The notes below the pieces were generated by a model that had not been told where the DNA came from, ran no database searches, and saw only the letters and a program-made list of their open reading frames with translations. Below are positions 469-28,812 of a stretch of 64,000 bases of DNA, piece by piece; the first letter of the stretch is position 1; every line of letters starts with the position of its first letter. The position numbers and the translations under genes are program-made. This stretch comes from an uncultured Candidatus Saccharibacteria bacterium (lineage in GTDB: Bacteria > Patescibacteriota > Minisyncoccia > Phycocordibacterales > JABMNX01): assembly GCA_964575755.1 (NCBI GenBank), contig CAZNRH010000002.1:70351-134350 (forward strand), read 5' to 3'.

Positions 469-1041
469 TTATTCAAAATGTCTATTCCACGGCAATATAA
501 AATCATCAACAGACTGTAGGCGTTCATCACGAGCATACCTTTGACTTAAGGTGTCTAAAATCTTTTCAAGCACCTTTTCAGAAGAAATTTTATTCATATC
601 TGTAAAAACCTCTACTTCGTCTACTGGTTCGTACCCTTTTGTGTTCTGAATGTGAATTCTATTTCTCTTTTTACGCAACGAATCCATCACATCATAAAAA
701 TTTGTGTTACTTGAATCAAATAAATCGTGCTTCTTTGCTTGCGCAATATAATGTTCAAACTGGTCAAATCTCTTTCCTCGAATAGCTCTGATTATTTCTT
801 GATTAAGATTCAATACACCTTCGTATACATTCGCTTTTATTCTTAATAAAAAATCATGCAGCAGCGCCTCGGAAATACTTACATTTATTAAAATTATAGG
901 TTTTATAAGTAAACATTGATTTTCAGTATTGTTTGCAAGTGCTCTATATTGCTCATAAAGAACTCCTTGCACACGTAGGTTGTAAACTATATTATCTCCA
1001 GTTTTAAATCGACAGATAAAATTTGCAGGTATAGTAAACAT
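469..1041 (-). CDS. hypothetical protein; possible HEPN-like Rx4-6H motif (LRKKRNRIHI) near C-terminus
   Basis: 190-aa ORF, last gene of a three-gene minus-strand operon. No recognisable family beyond the R..H motif. Confidence 0.5.
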   Translation of the reverse strand: MFTIPANFICRFKTGDNIVYNLRVQGVLYEQYRALANNTENQCLLIKPIILINVSISEALLHDFLLRIKANVYEGVLNLNQEIIRAIRGKRFDQFEHYIAQAKKHDLFDSSNTNFYDVMDSLRKKRNRIHIQNTKGYEPVDEVEVFTDMNKISSEKVLEKILDTLSQRYARDERLQSVDDFILPWNRHFE

Positions 1042-1048
1042 AAACTTT

Positions 1049-1906
1049 TTATTTTGTTTGTTCCCCTTCTATCTGAATAGATAAATCATCCATCACGTAG
1101 TGTACAAATTGAGAACCAAGTTCGGTTAAGATATACGGATCAGTACGATCAAAGGCAGATTTACCTTTTCCTTTTGATGTAGATTCTTGTCTTATTACAC
1201 CTCCTGTACTTAAGTCTCTAATTAGTAATCTAAATAAATCAGCTTCTGCAGAACGTTCTTCTGGAATTTCTCCTCTAAGATTTTGCCATATTTCACCTCT
1301 TGTAATCCTTGGGTGATTATATATCTTTGAAATAACTTGAAAATGGAATTCGTGATATTTTTCAATCCAGTCCAGAAAAAATCTAACCCAATCATCTTGA
1401 ACTATACTTATTCCTCCAGCGTTAGTGATCAGCTTCCTTAACATATTTCTTTTTTCAAGCGTCTCTGCTTGATCCCATTTTGAAAAAGTCGCTTTAACTA
1501 ATGCTATATACTCTTCTGATTCGATCCTTTTATTTATTCTATCACCAAACTCTTTAAATCTCCCAAAAATCTGGTTTAAGTCTACTGACAATTGCTTTAA
1601 TTTCTCCTCATGTTCCTTTACCCAGAGATAAATAAATTTATTCATATCTTGCTGGTCATTTTCAGAAGAAAGAGCTGCTGCAGCACTTATTACAGAACCT
1701 ACCCAAGGGAGGCTGCTTAGAGCAGCCATTGAAACTCTGGTGTATTTTAGAGATTCACTACCTAGAAGTCTTTCTAAAATTTCTCTTTCATTTCCAGATA
1801 ATATTTCTATATCTCTTCTTATTACACCCTTAGTTTCACTGACACCTTTTGTGGTACTTTGTGTCTCATCTATCTTTTCTTTACCTTTTTTGCCTTTATC
1901 GTCCAT
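1049..1906 (-). CDS. hypothetical protein
   Basis: 285-aa ORF separated by 8 nt from the downstream gene and 5 nt from the upstream gene in the same operon. No recognisable motifs. Confidence 0.5.
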   Translation of the reverse strand: MDDKGKKGKEKIDETQSTTKGVSETKGVIRRDIEILSGNEREILERLLGSESLKYTRVSMAALSSLPWVGSVISAAAALSSENDQQDMNKFIYLWVKEHEEKLKQLSVDLNQIFGRFKEFGDRINKRIESEEYIALVKATFSKWDQAETLEKRNMLRKLITNAGGISIVQDDWVRFFLDWIEKYHEFHFQVISKIYNHPRITRGEIWQNLRGEIPEERSAEADLFRLLIRDLSTGGVIRQESTSKGKGKSAFDRTDPYILTELGSQFVHYVMDDLSIQIEGEQTK

Positions 1907-1910
1907 TAAT

Positions 1911-2516
1911 TTAAGAATTGAGTTCAGATAAAAGATCTGAATCTTTTTTATGGTTTTCTTTTGACTGCTTAACGAAGCCAGTTATTTTCTGGTTGAGAGT
2001 TTCATTGTAACCATCAACTTGTTGATTAATGTTATCAAGTCGTTGCTGAATCTTCCCTACAATATCGTCTCTTTCTTTTTTTAGTGAATCAGCATCATCT
2101 GAAAAGACAATAATCTCAAATACAATACAATTATCTTCAACCGACACTTCTTCACTCCAAAGCATAAAAGTTGACGGCTTTGATTCAAGTAGTTCTTTGT
2201 CGCCTGAAAATGGAACAGAAAATACCGCGATCTTTTTTTCATATTCCTCACCTCGATCTACACCGAAAGAACTTGGAAAATATTTTGCTGGAATCATTGC
2301 TTTTGTAAGGTCAACTTTTATTTTTGATGGATCCAAGACAACTCTTGCAATTGACTTTTCTTCAACAAGGTTTTGAATGTACTTTTCTTCATCTTTTAAA
2401 TTTACAACAGAAGAATCAGCAAGAACTTCTTCTTCTATTTTTTTTGTTTGTGCTTCAAGGACTGCACCTAAGTCAAACTTTGCAAACAATCTGAAGCCAC
2501 TTCTAGTAAAAAGCAT
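1911..2516 (-). CDS. hypothetical protein
   Basis: 201-aa ORF, first gene of the three-gene operon. No recognisable motifs. Confidence 0.5.
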   Translation of the reverse strand: MLFTRSGFRLFAKFDLGAVLEAQTKKIEEEVLADSSVVNLKDEEKYIQNLVEEKSIARVVLDPSKIKVDLTKAMIPAKYFPSSFGVDRGEEYEKKIAVFSVPFSGDKELLESKPSTFMLWSEEVSVEDNCIVFEIIVFSDDADSLKKERDDIVGKIQQRLDNINQQVDGYNETLNQKITGFVKQSKENHKKDSDLLSELNS

Positions 2517-2742
2517 ATATTTGTGTTTCTAGTAGTCTAGTAATGTTAAATCCAGTATACTCCTAATATTTATATGTCCAACGACTTAATTATTGAGCAA
2601 CAATTTTTATTATCGCTTTTACAATAGAGCCTACTTTTCAGGAATAATCGAAGATGGTAAACGCAACGTTCTAAATCCGTCCAAATCTGAATAATGGTCT
2701 CTTTCAAAATCAGATGTAATTTGTCTTATATTTACAGCCATA

Positions 2743-2773
2743 AATAAACAGCCAGAGTACTCTGGCTGTTTAT
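2743..2773 (-). terminator. hairpin terminator downstream of tRNA-Gln
   Basis: Perfect palindrome aaacagccagagtactctggctgttt flanked by T-rich runs on both strands. Confidence 0.5.
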
Positions 2774-2794
2774 TTTGTGTGTCATTTCGTTCAA

Positions 2795-2865
2795 AGCTGC
2801 CGGACTAGGACTCGAACCTAGATAGCTAGCACCAAAAGCTAGTGTCCTGCCATTAGACGATCCGG
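2795..2865 (-). tRNA. tRNA-Gln (anticodon UUG)
   Basis: Manual cloverleaf: acceptor TGCCGGA/TCCGGCA with U1-A72. Three-bp D-stem GTC/GAC. Anticodon stem CTAGC/GCTAG with loop TTTTGGT. T-arm CTAGG-TTCGAGT-CCTAG. Discriminator G. Confidence 0.8.
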
Positions 2866-3011
2866 CAGCTTTGAAAACAATGTCGTTTTATTATATTAAA
2901 TTTTAAAGTACCAAAAACCTACCCTATCGCCTGTTTCGTTAGACTCAACAACGGCGATTTTCTGTTCCGCAGAAATCGGATGAAATATAAAGCAGTTTAT
3001 ATTTCATTCCC

Positions 3012-3029
3012 ACCACTTAGACGATCCGG
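3012..3029. repeat. 15-17 nt direct copy of the tRNA-Gln 5' end (ttagacgatccggca)
   Basis: Exact 15-nt match to 2851-2865, about 150 bp from the tRNA gene. Confidence 0.6.
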
Positions 3030-3101
3030 CAATTATTCTATTGTCTACTACAATATTAAATTACTACGTAATATTGCCTTAATTAAAGTATGTAATCAAG
3101 T

Positions 3102-4157
3102 CTATTTAAGTAACTTCACAAGAGCGAGCTCTACTGGAAGTTGAGGAATATATGAACGAGATATTGCATCATATGCTCCAAGGAGCTCATATAGTACAAC
3201 TGAATTAATATGAGACTCCTTGCCCTCACTTAATTTTTTAAGAAATTCAAAATCTTCTTTTACAAACTGCTCTTTAAACCCTTTTTCCATTTCTTTTGCA
3301 TATTTAAGGAGCAAGACCACACGTACTTTATGGAGTACTAGCTTCATAAATGTTTTTATATCAAGGTTCTGTGCCACTACGTCCCCTACAACCTCAAGTG
3401 CATTTTCAAGCTTTTTCTCTGCAATAGCTTCGATAAAATTATTAATAAGCTTCCCTTTTGGCGCCCCTGTTACAAGCTCTACTTCTTCTATGCTTACTTT
3501 ATTGTATTTTGAAGATGAAAGTATCTTTTGCAAAACTCCATGTGCATCACGAAACGAACCCTCTGCAAGCATCGCTATTAAATCCGCTGAAGCTGGCTCT
3601 AGTGAGAATTTTTCCTTCTTCGCGATATCCGTTATCATTTTTGCTAAAATTTGTCTGCTTGGTTTTTTAAATGTAAAACTCTGACATCGCGATATTATCG
3701 TCTCTGGTAACTTCCCTTCTTCTGTTGTTGCCAGCATAAACACAACATGCTTTGGTGGCTCTTCAAGTGTCTTTAAGAGTGCATTAAAAGCTTCTTTAGT
3801 TAGCATGTGTACCTCGTCAATAATATAAACTTTGTACGGAGACTCAAATGGAAGTGTGTGTACTGACTCACGAAGTGCTCGTATGTCATCAATACCACGA
3901 TTTGAAGCAGCATCGATTTCATACATATCATTCTGTGATGCTCCTATCGCTCGCGCCAGTATACGCGCAATACTTGTCTTCCCTGTTCCTCGAGAACCAG
4001 AGAAAAGATATGCGTGTGATATATTTCCCTGCTCTATTGCACCCTCAAGCACAGAGACAATATGCTCCTGCCCGAGCACATCTTTAAACTCCTCAGGACG
4101 ATATTTCCTATAGAGCGCTGTTTGTCTATTTTGGCTGGCATTAGAATCTGCTGACAT
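3102..4157 (-). CDS. dnaX: DNA polymerase III subunit gamma/tau (short form)
   Basis: AAA+ Walker A GSRGTGKTS. DEVH box IIDEVHML. Sensor region TIISRCQSFTFKKP. Confidence 0.9.
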   Translation of the reverse strand: MSADSNASQNRQTALYRKYRPEEFKDVLGQEHIVSVLEGAIEQGNISHAYLFSGSRGTGKTSIARILARAIGASQNDMYEIDAASNRGIDDIRALRESVHTLPFESPYKVYIIDEVHMLTKEAFNALLKTLEEPPKHVVFMLATTEEGKLPETIISRCQSFTFKKPSRQILAKMITDIAKKEKFSLEPASADLIAMLAEGSFRDAHGVLQKILSSSKYNKVSIEEVELVTGAPKGKLINNFIEAIAEKKLENALEVVGDVVAQNLDIKTFMKLVLHKVRVVLLLKYAKEMEKGFKEQFVKEDFEFLKKLSEGKESHINSVVLYELLGAYDAISRSYIPQLPVELALVKLLK

Positions 4158-4238
4158 GAAAAGATTATACCACCCTAAACTAATAATTTGTAAACGAAAA
4201 AGCCGCCATACGTAATACGCAGGCGGCTTATGTTGAGG

Positions 4239-4523
4239 TTATGCTGTTACGGCCAAACCTCCTTTAAATTCTGATGAAATGGATAAAGTTTTTTCCATCC
4301 ACTGTTTCCAGTAGCTTGAGATGTCTATAGACTTTATAAACAAAAAAGCATCCAAAAACAACTCAAGTAATTGACCAGATACTGTCCTGATCTTGATTAA
4401 TGGTAGTATTCCCTCCCTTTCTGTAACTTTTACAACTTTAACTGGCATCCCAACATCTTGCTTGTTCGCAAATGTTAGGTCGGCAAAAGAGTTTTTAACC
4501 AGTACTTCACTTCCCTCAGTCAT
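4239..4523 (-). CDS. hypothetical protein
   Basis: 94-aa non-overlapping ORF between dnaX and dus. Confidence 0.35.
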   Translation of the reverse strand: MTEGSEVLVKNSFADLTFANKQDVGMPVKVVKVTEREGILPLIKIRTVSGQLLELFLDAFLFIKSIDISSYWKQWMEKTLSISSEFKGGLAVTA

Positions 4524-4596
4524 TCTTTATTTATTCCTTTAAATCATTTTTTAGTGGACAATTCCATAAATACTTTAACAGGAAGCGCTATATAAG

Positions 4597-5625
4597 TCAA
4601 GTTTTAAGGTATTTTGAGACTACATTTTCAACCTCAGATGCATCTTTAGCTTCCATAAGTTTTATGCGAAGCTCTTTTGCGCCATCCCACCCACTTACAT
4701 ACGCCTTATAGTGTTTCTTCATTACATTAAAACTTTTTACATCTCCAAGAAGCTCTTCGTAAAGTTTGGTGTGCTCAACTAAAACAGTGAGACGCTCTTC
4801 TATTGAAACCTCTCCTTTATCTCGATCAAATAACCATGGGTTACCGAAAACTGCACGCCCAAGCATCACTCCATCACACCCTGTCTCATCTACCTTTCTT
4901 TGGGCATCTTCTAGATCGACGACATCTCCATTACCAATTATAAATGTACCGCTTCCTAACTCGTCTCGTATTTCAACCGCTCTTTTTATCTGACCCCAAT
5001 CAGCGGGGACTTTCGACATCTCTTTACGTGTTCGCCCATGAACCGTAATTACGGCTGGTTTTGCTTTAAGTAGCGCAGGCAGCCACTCCTCTAGAATATT
5101 TGTACTGTAACCAATGCGAGTCTTTACAGAGACTGGAATATATTTACCACCTTCTTTTATAACCTCATCTACTCCGTCTTTCGCAGCTTGTATTAGTTCT
5201 TGAGCTAATTCAGGAGTCTTCATTAAAGAAGCACCTGAACCCTGTTTTTCAATACTTCTATCTGGGCACCCCATATTTATATCAAACCCATCAAATCCAC
5301 ACTCAACAGCATATTTTGCAGCTTTTTTCATGATGTCTGAACTTGAAGTAAAAAATTGTACAACAATCGGACGCTCTCCATCAGAGTAATTCATGTCTCT
5401 TTTTATCTTTTTTTGTCCTTTTTCATCTGCTAAAAATAACCCATCGGCAGAAATAAATTCCGTCCACATAACATCTGGCTTGCCATACTTCGCTATAACA
5501 CGCCTAAAAGCGACATCAGTGACATCTGCCATTGGTGCTAATACAAAAAATGGTTTTTTTAATTCCCCCCAGAACCCTATCTCATTTCCTTGTAACATGT
5601 TGACAAATATACCACACCATGACAT
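4597..5625 (-). CDS. dus: tRNA-dihydrouridine synthase
   Basis: FVLAPMADVTDVAFRR and INMGCPD motifs of the Dus TIM-barrel family. Confidence 0.85.
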   Translation of the reverse strand: MSWCGIFVNMLQGNEIGFWGELKKPFFVLAPMADVTDVAFRRVIAKYGKPDVMWTEFISADGLFLADEKGQKKIKRDMNYSDGERPIVVQFFTSSSDIMKKAAKYAVECGFDGFDINMGCPDRSIEKQGSGASLMKTPELAQELIQAAKDGVDEVIKEGGKYIPVSVKTRIGYSTNILEEWLPALLKAKPAVITVHGRTRKEMSKVPADWGQIKRAVEIRDELGSGTFIIGNGDVVDLEDAQRKVDETGCDGVMLGRAVFGNPWLFDRDKGEVSIEERLTVLVEHTKLYEELLGDVKSFNVMKKHYKAYVSGWDGAKELRIKLMEAKDASEVENVVSKYLKT

Positions 5626-27258: not shown

Positions 27259-27388
27259 GCCGGGAGCGGGAGTTGAAAGACGGAAGCGGTATACAAGATG
27301 CGTAGTGAAACGGAGCAGGCTTGTCGCTGAGTCGGGGTCGAGAGTACTTAGTGCATAGCACTTAGTAACTCGTGACCAACTCCCGCTT
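27259..27388 (+). repeat. tRNA-linked AGACGGAAGC element (unit A)
   Basis: Starts with the reverse complement of the tRNA-Leu(UAA) 3' end (gccgggagcgggagttgaa). Then aagacggaagc. Core gctgagtcggggtcgaga. Ends ttagtaactcgtgacc plus a copy of the tRNA T-arm 3' strand (caactcccgct). Confidence 0.6.
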
Positions 27389-27457
27389 CTAATAGAAAAA
27401 CAAATTTGTTTTGTAACCTTTTTCTGTTACTATAACTCTTGTTATATTACACAACAT

Positions 27458-27530
27458 CCGCCTATAGCTCAGTTGGTAGAGCAACCGCCTCTTAAGCGGT
27501 GGGTCGCAGGTTCGAGTCCTGCTGGGCGGA
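27458..27530 (+). tRNA. tRNA-Lys (anticodon CUU)
   Basis: Acceptor CCGCCTA/TGGGCGG. D-arm GCTC-AGTTGGTA-GAGC. Anticodon loop CTCTTAA. T-arm GCAGG-TTCGAGT-CCTGC. Discriminator A. Confidence 0.85.
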
Positions 27531-27534
27531 CAAT

Positions 27535-27580
27535 GAAATAAAATACTCCCATTTTTGTGGGAGTATTTTATTTCATTTCT
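27535..27580 (+). terminator. long hairpin terminator after tRNA-Lys
   Basis: 17-bp stem gaaataaaatactccca/tgggagtattttatttc followed by atttcttc. Confidence 0.55.
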
Positions 27581-27588
27581 TCTACACT

Positions 27589-27720
27589 GGACTCGAAAGA
27601 CGGAAGCCCGCGTGCCAAAGCACGAGAGAGGGCTGAGTCGGGGTCGAGAACACTTAATATTTCAGGAATACCTGGACTAAAATATTTAGTGATTCGTGAC
27701 CGAGTCCTGCTGGGCGGACA
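27589..27720 (+). repeat. tRNA-linked AGACGGAAGC element (unit B)
   Basis: Starts ggactcgaa, the reverse complement of the tRNA-Lys T-loop/stem. Then agacggaagc. Core gctgagtcggggtcgaga. Ends tttagtgattcgtgacc plus an exact 20-nt copy of the tRNA-Lys 3' end (cgagtcctgctgggcggaca). Confidence 0.65.
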
Positions 27721-27796
27721 CGCGCAAAACAAAATACGCTATACCTATGGCGTATTTTGCTTTAACAAGCAAACTGCTTTGCTTGTGGAGCTTGTC

Positions 27797-27973
27797 CGAG
27801 ACGGAGCAATGTTTTGTTGCCTGTTTTTCCTAAGACAACAAAACCGCGAGCCCAGACCAAAAGCACTTAGTAGATTTCAAGCGAAGCGAAAAAATCTATT
27901 TAGTGACTTGTGGTGACTAAGTGATAAAATAAGGTTTGCGAATTTAGAAACCTGCGCCGAGTCCTTTAAATTA
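27797..27973 (+). repeat. GAGACGGAGC-motif element X1
   Basis: gagacggagcaatgttttgttgcc...aacaaaaccgcgag hairpin, then ...tttagtgacttgtggtgac...gcgaatttagaaacctg. Ends gcgccgagtcct, resembling the tRNA-Lys T-arm. Homologous to 46433-46532. Confidence 0.55.
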
Positions 27974-28021
27974 ACAACTTGTGATGACGAGGTACACTGC
28001 TTTTTGTATGTACTCGTGTCT

Positions 28022-28060
28022 GAGACGGAGTGATATTTTGGTACGATGCATCGCTCGGAA
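28022..28060 (+). repeat. GAGACGGAG-motif element X2 (short or partial)
   Basis: gagacggagtgatattttggtacgatgcatcgctc. Confidence 0.4.
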
Positions 28061-28125
28061 TAAATCAAACAAACACCACTTGAAACAAAATCAATACTAA
28101 ACTATACTAGTGGACACATATTAAT

Positions 28126-28189
28126 GTGCGAGTGGTGAAATTGGTAGGACAAACAGTGTTTAAACACTGTTTGTCCCCGTCGAGTGAGG
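28126..28189 (+). pseudogene. tRNA-like pseudogene (tRNA-Leu-derived 5' half, no T-arm or acceptor 3' strand)
   Basis: GTGCGAGTGGTGAAATTGGTAGGAC closely matches the 5' half of the adjacent tRNA-Leu (GCGCGAGTGGCGAAATTGGTAGAC). Followed by an aberrant anticodon hairpin with a 6-nt loop and no T-arm. Confidence 0.5.
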
Positions 28190-28218
28190 AAATGTTCGTT
28201 ATAAAAAATTGATAGTGT

Positions 28219-28300
28219 GCGCGAGTGGCGAAATTGGTAGACGCGCTAGTCTTAGGAACTAGTGGGGCAACCCATGGAGGTTCAAGTCCTCTCTCGCGCA
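28219..28300 (+). tRNA. tRNA-Leu (anticodon UAG)
   Basis: Acceptor GCGCGAG/CTCGCGC. Anticodon stem CTAGT/ACTAG with loop CTTAGGA. Long variable arm. Discriminator A. Confidence 0.85.
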
Positions 28301-28345
28301 CAGTGTCTATTTTTTATAGAACATAGTAAAAGGTATCGCAAGATG

Positions 28346-28373
28346 TGGAGGTTCAAGTCCTCTCTCGCGCACA
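28346..28373 (+). repeat. exact 28-nt direct copy of the tRNA-Leu(UAG) 3' end
   Basis: tggaggttcaagtcctctctcgcgcaca is identical to 28275-28302, with a 43-nt spacer. Confidence 0.8.
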
Positions 28374-28379
28374 TAAAAC

Positions 28380-28412
28380 AAAAAACACCTAGCTTACACT
28401 AGGTGTTTTTTG
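28380..28412 (+). terminator. rho-independent terminator
   Basis: Stem cacctag/ctaggtg followed by ttttttg. Confidence 0.6.
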
Positions 28413-28422
28413 TTTCACGAAC

Positions 28423-28812
28423 TTAAAAAGAAACATTATCATTATAATGAGAATAAAAGTTACCACCTCCACTTCCTCTCCTCTCTATCACACCTGGTAT
28501 AATCACATTTTGATCCTGTACACTAAAAGTAGATTGGAGCATTCTAATCAATCCCCAAATTGAAACCATTACAAAAAGAGCAATAATTCCATATATCATA
28601 ATGTCTCGCCCTTCGGATTTTTTATCCTCACTTCCTTGATTAAATATGAACTGAGCCAACCCCCAGAAGAAATAAAGCACTGCAAGAGCTAGTACCAACG
28701 GAATTGCCGTATTTATTAAGCTAGAAAAAGTACCCATCACAGCTTCCAAACTTTGAGCACTAGCCACTAGTGGCATAATAAGCAATCCTAACGCCACAAA
28801 AAATGTTTTCAT
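28423..28812 (-). CDS. TrbC/VirB2-like pilin-type small membrane protein
   Basis: Signal peptide MKTFFVALGLLIMPLVASA followed by two TM helices (AIPLVLALAVLYFFWGLAQ and IMIYGIIALFVMVSIWGLIRML). Confidence 0.6.
   Translation of the reverse strand: MKTFFVALGLLIMPLVASAQSLEAVMGTFSSLINTAIPLVLALAVLYFFWGLAQFIFNQGSEDKKSEGRDIMIYGIIALFVMVSIWGLIRMLQSTFSVQDQNVIIPGVIERRGSGGGNFYSHYNDNVSF

Follow-up and report, generated by a model that had tools for sequence, protein, structure and literature searches.

Near the start of the 64,000-nucleotide (nt) stretch of DNA analyzed here (hereafter the window; positions 70,351 to 134,350 of contig CAZNRH010000002.1, assembly GCA_964575755.1), an intact tRNA-Gln(UUG) gene lies downstream of the clamp-loader gene dnaX, and the first 15 nt of this tRNA gene occur a second time in the interval between the two genes. 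We refer to this upstream copy as the "stump." The features of the locus, in coordinates of the window, are as follows.

2742..2775: perfect 17+17-nt palindrome, terminator-like, 3′ of tRNA-Gln and before a three-gene operon
2796..2867, minus strand: tRNA-Gln(UUG), intact gene (ARAGORN; Rfam tRNA, 58.3 bits)
2868..3016, minus strand: inserted 149–base pair (bp) segment without an open reading frame (ORF); it contains a TATAAT box, three hairpins, and TTTTCAAAGC, the proximal flank of the present tRNA
3017..3031, minus strand: stump, identical to tRNA-Gln positions 1-15 (5′ strand of the acceptor stem and beginning of the D arm)
3032..3101, minus strand: putative native promoter region of tRNA-Gln, now upstream of the stump (promoter scan; alignment with the related loci L083, L170, and L171), including a CTTGAT...TAATTAAGGCAATAT block common to relatives
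3032-3044: proximal flank ACAATAGAATAAT, inside this promoter region
3059-3032: promoter-like TTAATA-16-AATAAT, inside the same region
3102..4157, minus strand: dnaX, clamp-loader gamma/tau subunit, the conserved upstream neighbor of tRNA-Gln in Paceibacteria (Pfam DNA_pol3_delta2, 1e-36)

Even when up to two mismatches are allowed, the 15-mer TTAGACGATCCGGCA is found at only two places in the window, 2853-2867 (the tRNA 5′ end) and 3017-3031. Shuffled sequences are expected to yield 0.10 matches, and two or more matches occurred in 0 of 100 shuffles; the repeat is real, and a chance origin is excluded by these shuffles. Start to start, the two copies are 164 nt apart, with 149 nt (2868-3016) in between, and both lie on the dnaX side, the second one sitting between tRNA-Gln and the dnaX stop codon. 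An earlier reading of this DNA from its letters alone (the sequence-only reading) had correctly noticed the exact copy, which it misplaced by 2 nt to 3015-3029, and had remarked that a duplicated tRNA end on the 5′ side is unusual for integrases, a remark that is supported here, the duplicated segment being positions 1-15. When a 1-nt indel is allowed, the similarity of the two copies may extend into the D arm (TGCCGGATCGTCTAA-TGGcaGGA versus TGCCGGATCGTCTAAgTGGtgGGA). The window is part of a metagenome contig of Patescibacteria (Paceibacteria); an identical dnaX product is encoded on GCA_006243245.1, and relatives of this product carry names such as Paceibacterota and Kaiserbacteria. The palindrome at 2742-2775, on the operon side of the tRNA, is single-copy in the window and recurs in relatives, with 100% identity in L083 (8920-8954) and 97% identity in L168 (7297-7334); an intrinsic-terminator scan left it unflagged, and its loop length is zero.

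Using blastn, we compared the region with ~170 related dnaX/tRNA-Gln loci (labeled by L and a number), among which L083 is the closest relative (dnaX 90% identical). The segment at 3044-3017, i.e., the 13-nt flank ACAATAGAATAAT together with the 15-mer, matched, at 28 of 28 positions (E = 9e-9), the beginning of the functional tRNA-Gln gene of L083 together with its flank, and the segment at 2877-2795, i.e., the 10-nt flank TTTTCAAAGC together with the whole tRNA, was 96% identical to L168. The present tRNA-Gln, by comparison, is only 86% identical to that of L083. Farther upstream, 3045-3101 can be aligned with promoter DNA (CTTGAT...TAATTAAGGCAATAT...) found before tRNA-Gln, or before its stump, in L083, L170, and L171. 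Hence, with a stump and flank that are L083-like and a present tRNA and flank that are L168-like, the upstream copy is most likely the displaced native 5′ end, and the window displays such an end, matching the gene and flank of relatives, right beside an intact gene. Read most simply, these alignments mean that the native start of the gene survives as the stump, joined as before to its native promoter region, and that the 149-bp segment and the present 5′ end came later.

Stumps and nuclease-type genes in related loci

The adjacency of dnaX and tRNA-Gln on the same strand was found in most loci, with a gap that ranged from 14 nt to 2.5 kb. In a fuzzy census over 116 tRNA-Gln genes, we observed a same-strand copy of the tRNA 5′ part 33 to 322 nt upstream of 19 genes, as compared to two opposite-strand upstream copies and no downstream copy of the 5′ part (0 of 116). 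Weaker stumps besides those of the census occur in L083, L021, L138, L176, L124, L128, and L086. The break points of the stumps cluster, all of them falling within tRNA positions 10-29. In L083, an older stump, split by a GC-rich hairpin, lies behind TGTTATAAT...ATACAT, a functional promoter in L170 and L171, and in L174, the stump lies behind a flank that is functional in L003 and L085; the position of these stumps behind flanks that are functional in relatives points to serial displacement. On a neighbor-joining tree of dnaX, stumps and ORFs were distributed patchily and independently of phylogeny. Within the clade of ≥80% identity alone, we found at least four stump forms, with breaks at position 10 (L083), 15 (the window), 17 (L176), and 25-29 (L003, L085, and L174), as well as four loci (L168, L170, L171, and L086) that lack an ordinary stump form. 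Stump junctions carry short palindromes (GTCCAAG..CTTGGAC, GTATGA..TCATAC, and GC hairpins), and the presence of such palindromes beside many break points is compatible with end processing at a break.

The stumps are associated with nuclease-type ORFs. Five loci (L018, L041, L063, L075, and L109) share an order in which the flank and tRNA positions 1-10 or 1-12 are followed by a GC-rich hairpin (e.g., CCTGCCTGCGCAGGCAGG), by TCTAATGGTAGGAC, by an ORF, and by the tRNA. In all five, the ORF, ~80 amino acids (aa) in length, starts 3 to 9 nt after TCTAATGGTAGGAC, and a spacer of 1 to 24 nt separates it from the intact tRNA-Gln. These ORFs are GIY-YIG domains (PF01541, E = 1e-14 to 6e-18). The loci, 1.54 Mb in all, contain 20 GIY-YIG ORFs, and 14 of these are found no more than 400 nt from tRNA-Gln, a territory that amounts to 6.3% of the bases (P = 4e-13; the count was freed of a query ORF in L152 that read through the tRNA gene). 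A similar tie was found for a 227-aa helix-turn-helix (HTH) protein, each of whose nine copies in the loci shares the strand of tRNA-Gln and precedes it by 1 to 76 nt (P = 1.6e-11), and two LAGLIDADG_3 ORFs, in L124 and L128, lie 6 to 7 nt upstream of tRNA-Gln. An order of displaced end, ORF, and rebuilt gene was seen in the five GIY-YIG loci, in L124 and L128 (LAGLIDADG_3), and in L086 and L168 (HTH), and not in the window.

Upstream of nuclease-type ORFs, we observed stump-like fragments of the D arm. In L128, the stump reads TCATCTAATGGTAG, a resident-type D arm, as opposed to GGTGGTGTAAAGGTAGCAC in the tRNA behind the ORF, which is as expected if a homing cassette brings in a cleavage-immune allele; L086 possibly likewise differs in its D arm between the stump and the tRNA behind the ORF. 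Decay of the cassettes is visible in L041, where the ORF contains an in-frame stop, and in L083 and L043, where a hairpin-bearing stump is present without an ORF. As for the window, a frame-0 peptide of the insert (MKYKLLYISSDFCGTENRRC) looks GIY-like by eye and was rejected as a GIY-YIG remnant after a 13-sequence profile matched in no frame.

The copies of the 227-aa family lie at 9659-10342 in L086 and at 6494-7180 in L168, as well as in L019, L027, L078, L091, L111, L113, and L132. The family features an N-terminal HTH and a conserved LYWAEGxKE motif, and has 2766 database relatives, all unnamed and many of them on ~1-kb contigs; searches of Pfam and NCBIfam returned only weak HTH matches, and those of the PDB none. 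This protein may be a mobile nuclease or a transposase-like gene, and one might guess that its YWAEG motif is a variant of LAGLIDADG. The genome of the window also has a resident 80-aa GIY-YIG gene (PF01541, E = 2e-16), at 7834-8076 of contig L001 and ~7 kb beyond window position 1, the context of which is kept in L083 (12683-12925), with no tRNA adjoining.

GC-rich palindromes of the CCTGCC...GGCAGG type occur in these AT-rich genomes and repeatedly split the D arm of the tRNA-Gln stump at positions 10-19 (L018 1735, L041 7930, L075 3856, L083 ~8500, and L021 8048, as well as L043, L063, and L109). They are found elsewhere too (L062 3752, L086 12476, and L109 8967), and may be small mobile hairpins or junction products. 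More generally, the interval between dnaX and tRNA-Gln is a hot spot of gene turnover: in L083, L168, L169, L170, L171, and L176, it holds varied small ORFs of 132 to 161 aa, mostly unrelated and without a Pfam family, and such ORFs are absent between the two genes in the window, L003, L085, and L174. L152 displays yet another arrangement, with a partial tRNA-Gln copy (positions ~20-72; 1259-1393) that lies 3′ of the intact tRNA-Gln and has a different acceptor stem and a GC hairpin in the anticodon loop.

Origin of the upstream copy

With a probability of roughly 0.55, we attribute the 15-nt copy to a native 5′ end that was displaced by a recurrent, probably nuclease-driven, replacement at tRNA-Gln. 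The comparison with relatives shows that the 149-bp segment entered the tRNA-Gln gene at about position 15-18, in the D loop, bringing along a new proximal flank and a replacement for the first ~15 nt, such that the gene was left intact while the old start and its promoter-proximal flank became stranded 164 nt upstream. The present 5′ end of the tRNA would, in other words, have arrived with the segment. Such an event would plausibly start when both strands are broken in the D-arm/anticodon-stem region of tRNA-Gln, an essential single-copy gene, and be completed by repair from a donor that supplies the new 5′ part and that, in many lineages, would also supply a small gene of homing-endonuclease type (GIY-YIG, LAGLIDADG, or the 227-aa HTH protein). 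Because only products that rebuild a complete tRNA would survive, what remains would be a stump, an insert, and an intact gene. In the insert of the window, the nuclease ORF would have been lost, as in L083, L043, and the stop-bearing L041, or would never have been there, and it is by analogy with the relatives that this ORF-less copy, too, may be linked to a nuclease. The stump itself is probably a decaying, functionless remnant.

Several observations weigh against this attribution. The present flank resembles that of L168 over just 10 nt beyond the tRNA, and searches of the window, the ~170 loci, and viral contigs for homologues of the 149-bp insert yielded only chance-level 10- to 20-mers. 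Within 2868-3016, there is no nuclease ORF and no detectable GIY-YIG remnant. Where GIY-YIG cassettes are present, the rebuilt tRNA keeps the D arm of the stump, which leaves immunity to self-cleavage unaccounted for, and the small (~80 aa) GIY-YIG proteins come without a DNA-binding domain; cleavage of tRNA-Gln DNA by them is putative. Furthermore, the loci were gathered around dnaX, which limits any claim of specificity for tRNA-Gln over other tRNAs, and the contigs that confirm the arrangement (L001 and L002) may come from the same sample.

The same final structure could be produced by recombination with foreign DNA without a dedicated nuclease. Here, tRNA-Gln and its upstream flank from a related lineage would be anchored homologously in or downstream of the tRNA and joined illegitimately within the first 15-18 nt (homology-facilitated illegitimate recombination). 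Competence is usual in the phylum Patescibacteria, and dprA belongs to the conserved neighborhood upstream of dnaX in relatives; the chimeric locus, in which the stump with its flank resembles L083 but the tRNA with its proximal flank resembles L168, as well as the resemblance of the short junction palindromes to end-joining products, would fit this route as well. Yet we consider it unlikely, as heteroduplex normally reaches the end of the shared tRNA sequence and would swap the flank without any duplication, joints formed at random would scatter rather than gather at positions 10-29 in at least 19 independent loci, and the strong tie to three nuclease-type ORF families would be left unaccounted for.

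A local tandem duplication of the promoter and tRNA 5′ part, by slippage or unequal crossing-over and followed by divergence, would render the copy an ordinary, decaying partial pseudogene. Repeats in L063, L089, and L164 do take in 15 to 30 nt of identical flank, and SegB-driven amplification in phage T6 gives tandem tRNA units. In the window, however, the flanks of the two copies are unrelated, each being matched by the functional flank of a different relative, and neither 3032-3195 nor 2704-2867 resembles the 164-nt unit, while the 28-of-28 identity to L083 speaks against a long divergence. Such a duplication is therefore improbable here.

We give a similarly poor, slightly lower chance to the idea that the copy is part of a functional RNA. 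The RNA would be a leader or small RNA of ~125 nt (3031 to ~2907) that starts with the tRNA 5′ sequence, is closed by the helix AUCGUCU/AGGCGAU, ends in a U run, and would act in tRNA-Gln maturation or as a decoy. A promoter-like site does lie directly upstream, the copied segment closes the minimum free energy fold, after which UUUUU follows, the stump classes A and B keep the stump and the adjacent hairpin across several lineages while the spacers diverge, and a mirror-image structured element exists 3′ of tRNAs (see below). But on the tRNA strand, the folds of 2868-3101 and 2905-3033 were no better than shuffles (z = −1.5 and −1.65, not significant), and the plus-strand fold (z = −3.5) consists of the same hairpins and provides no evidence of function. 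Stump forms are, moreover, wholly different between close relatives; covariation was not measurable for the insert, as it has no homologue, and was not seen in classes A and B, whose sequences are too few and too similar. Rfam 15, searched at gathering thresholds over the whole window and in E-value mode over 2500-3200 and 27400-28450, found no family in 2868-3101, with the tRNA alone scoring, and the model R1 had no match at the insert.

The explanation offered by the sequence-only reading, in which the repeat is an attachment (att) site of a tRNA-targeting integrative island with the three-gene operon as its cargo and a partner repeat beyond the window start, is largely refuted and now very improbable: the operon is variable, adjoins a tRNA, has a slightly lower GC content (0.32-0.34 versus 0.36-0.41), and has an orfA-orfB homologue in L172 that lies beside a tRNA 3′ fragment and between ~80-nt inverted repeats, but both copies of the repeat lie on the dnaX side and do not bracket it, neither the window nor the 7 kb past its start, as represented by contig L001, contained another copy of the 5′ 15-mer or the 3′ 23-mer, no integrase or transposase was found among the ORFs at 469-5625 or the genes called on the 12.5-kb L001 contig, no viral relatives were found, and the duplicated part is positions 1-15 rather than the tRNA 3′ part. 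The att sites of tyrosine integrases in tRNA-targeting elements are, as Williams reportedly described in 2002, sublocated in the anticodon loop, the T loop, or the 3′ end. The window does share with such elements a partial tRNA copy that forms a direct repeat beside an intact tRNA and has variable DNA adjacent to it; they differ in that the elements duplicate the 3′ part, bracket kilobases, and encode an integrase, whereas here the 5′ part is duplicated around 149 bp without a recombinase.

For the displaced-end reading, the closest analogue is found in the endonuclease-encoding mobile ORFs (mORFs) of fungal mitochondria, which insert a foreign C-terminal gene end while the native end stays behind as a duplicate that matches relatives, as in atp6 of Allomyces and atp6, atp9, cox2, and nad3 of Glomus (PMC3630166). 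In both systems, the insertion of a replacement end would keep an essential gene intact, its native end persists as a nonfunctional duplicate that resembles the gene of relatives, a GIY-YIG or LAGLIDADG ORF lies in between (here in the loci of relatives), and the distribution is patchy. Unlike the mORFs, which act on the 3′ end of a protein gene, the present case concerns the 5′ end, with promoter-proximal flank, of a bacterial chromosomal tRNA gene; the insert of the window has no ORF, and the role of a nuclease is putative. A second comparison is offered by SegB of the phages T4 and T6, a GIY-YIG enzyme that cuts tRNA gene regions and drives duplication of tRNA and segB (PMC2330249, PMC13096335). 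This free-standing gene of the T4/T6 tRNA cluster likewise adjoins tRNA genes, and its features include cleavage in tRNA gene DNA and a nuclease-dependent duplication of tRNA-containing segments via microhomology at the tRNA 5′ end. SegB is, however, larger, has a DNA-binding region, and is phage-borne, whereas here we find ~80-aa catalytic domains in cellular genomes, and the product is a 5′ stump instead of tandem repeats of whole tRNAs. A recent survey of tRNA group I introns in Patescibacteria covers anticodon-loop introns of tRNA-Asn and tRNA-Asp and mentions neither stumps nor free-standing nuclease genes, and our literature search found no paper on stumps or free-standing nuclease genes at tRNA-Gln in Patescibacteria.

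A broader proposal, which we put forward tentatively and hold to be possible rather than probable, is that Paceibacteria, of the Candidate Phyla Radiation (CPR), carry an undescribed class of small mobile cassettes for which the 5′ half of the single-copy tRNA-Gln gene is the homing site. A cassette would comprise a promoter-proximal flank and a replacement 5′ end, sometimes with a variant, cleavage-immune D arm, and would be driven by one of at least three families of nuclease-type ORFs (~80-aa GIY-YIG, LAGLIDADG, and the abundant 227-aa HTH protein), with the repeat in the window as an ORF-less footprint. The use of tRNA 3′ ends by integrative elements is ascribed to the need to preserve the promoter and the 5′ part. 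Our data point to another route, in which an essential tRNA gene present in a single copy receives a new 5′ end and proximal promoter, with stumps left behind. If the linked GIY-YIG, LAGLIDADG, and HTH ORFs indeed drive this process, free-standing homing endonucleases would actively shape the tiny genomes of Patescibacteria. It would then constitute a route for horizontal exchange of tRNA sequence, carry the combination of mobile ORF and gene-end replacement, known from fungal mitochondria, over to RNA genes and to the chromosomes of bacteria, and provide candidate site-specific nucleases with a defined, conserved target. On a practical level, stumps and the hairpins inside them can mislead tRNA annotation and the search for islands by att repeats.

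The operon on the tRNA 3′ side

Beyond the palindrome at 2742-2775, the following three genes form a compact operon.

1911..2516, minus strand: orfA, 201 aa, first gene of the operon, like the N-terminal half of the PADLOC phage-defense candidate PDC-S54
1049..1906, minus strand: orfB, 285 aa, helical, with a C-terminal winged-helix–like domain, of an unnamed family
469..1041, minus strand: orfC, 190 aa, outside the orfA-orfB module found elsewhere

As the two copies of the 15-nt repeat both lie on the dnaX side and enclose 149 bp, the repeat has nothing to do with the operon, which is accessory cargo at the tRNA 3′ side, independent of the repeat. In the sequence-only reading, the operon was described as positioned like cargo of a tRNA-associated island. 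That it is variable, accessory DNA beside a tRNA 3′ end is borne out, since none of the three proteins was found in the ~170 related dnaX/tRNA-Gln loci and the operon is thus not conserved at this position in all relatives; the island part of the claim, with bracketing repeats and an integrase, found no counterpart, and synteny with the relatives instead indicates that the repeat is a scar left at the 5′ end of the tRNA by a separate event. A tblastn search with the pyrD of the contig found no relatives, and we make no claim of pyrD synteny.

The three ORFs (469-2516) exist as described earlier, and their products match no Pfam or NCBIfam family; PHROGs, PDB sequence searches, and viral contigs gave nothing either. 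The view that all three are of unknown family needs amending for orfA, which matches PDC-S54 (E = 1.8e-34) over positions 5-199 of the 410 positions of the profile. The remainder of this profile is not matched by orfB. Among 5.8 billion proteins, orfA has a single other homologue, which follows a glycosyltransferase gene in L172. There, the DNA homology (82.8%) is limited to orfA and orfB (window 1066-2572) and stops at window position 1066. The orfA-orfB homologue of L172 lies between ~80-nt inverted repeats (1950-2030 and 3740-3830) with a terminator-like palindrome, after which a tRNA 3′ fragment (GAGGGTTCGAGTCCCTCACTGGGCAC) is found. The orfB family comprises 380 representative clusters, one member of which has a weak Abi_alpha match; an AlphaFold2 model of orfB (predicted local distance difference test, pLDDT, of 83) gave weak winged-helix/MarR-like matches in a fold search (E ≥ 0.046). 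For orfC, sequence searches of Pfam, NCBIfam, PADLOC, PHROGs, and the PDB returned no match, and its single-sequence model (pLDDT 38) was unusable. The operon is possibly a defense module.

Beyond the operon, at ~190-245 on the minus strand, we noticed a motif (AAATTCACTTCGCGGATTGCC...GGCAACCAAGAAG) that also occurs in L083 (8662-8710), directly after tRNA-Gln, and in L170 (6808-6860), after a terminator; with only 13 nt exact and E = 0.024, the evidence for it is weak.

Structured elements downstream of tRNAs

Copies of tRNA ends also occur on the 3′ side of tRNA genes. On the plus strand of the window, at 27259-27398, 27579-27722, and 27787-27929, we found a covarying, RNA-like element of ~120-150 nt with a three-way junction. 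It lies ~50-60 nt 3′ of tRNA-Leu(UAA) and tRNA-Lys(CUU), with a weaker, tandem third copy, and in 12 related loci, it lies at this distance 3′ of tRNA-Gln. Its closing helix is built from the complement of the T loop, T stem, and acceptor 3′ strand of the neighboring tRNA, which is paired with a direct copy of that same 3′ end; in the tRNA-Lys element, this copy is exact over 19 nt (27701-27719). The conserved blocks of the element are GAAAGACGGAG, GAGTCGGGGTCGAGAG, and CTCGTGACCGAGTCC. In a model-fitted alignment, 88.9% of cells were paired, as compared to 33-41% when the alignment was slid, and double changes were present in 37 of 42 pairs. The element at 27259-27929 is not in Rfam and is, as far as our searches go, undescribed. 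It may be a related, RNA-based counterpart at tRNA 3′ ends, a mirror image of the 5′ stumps. In E. coli, the rtT repeats and RtT RNA of the tyrT operon likewise carry partial copies of a tRNA end in short structured repeats that flank a tRNA gene; involving the 3′ end and lying downstream, they bear on the element described here rather than on the 5′ stump.

Among tRNA-Gln genes, 17 of 113 have a copy of their 3′ end 131 to 239 nt downstream, most of which are explained by the structured element. Partial end copies were found near 3 of the 10 tRNAs of the window, and 44 nt downstream of tRNA-Leu(UAG) (28219-28301), the 3′ end of this gene recurs exactly over 27 nt, at 28346-28372 on the plus strand.

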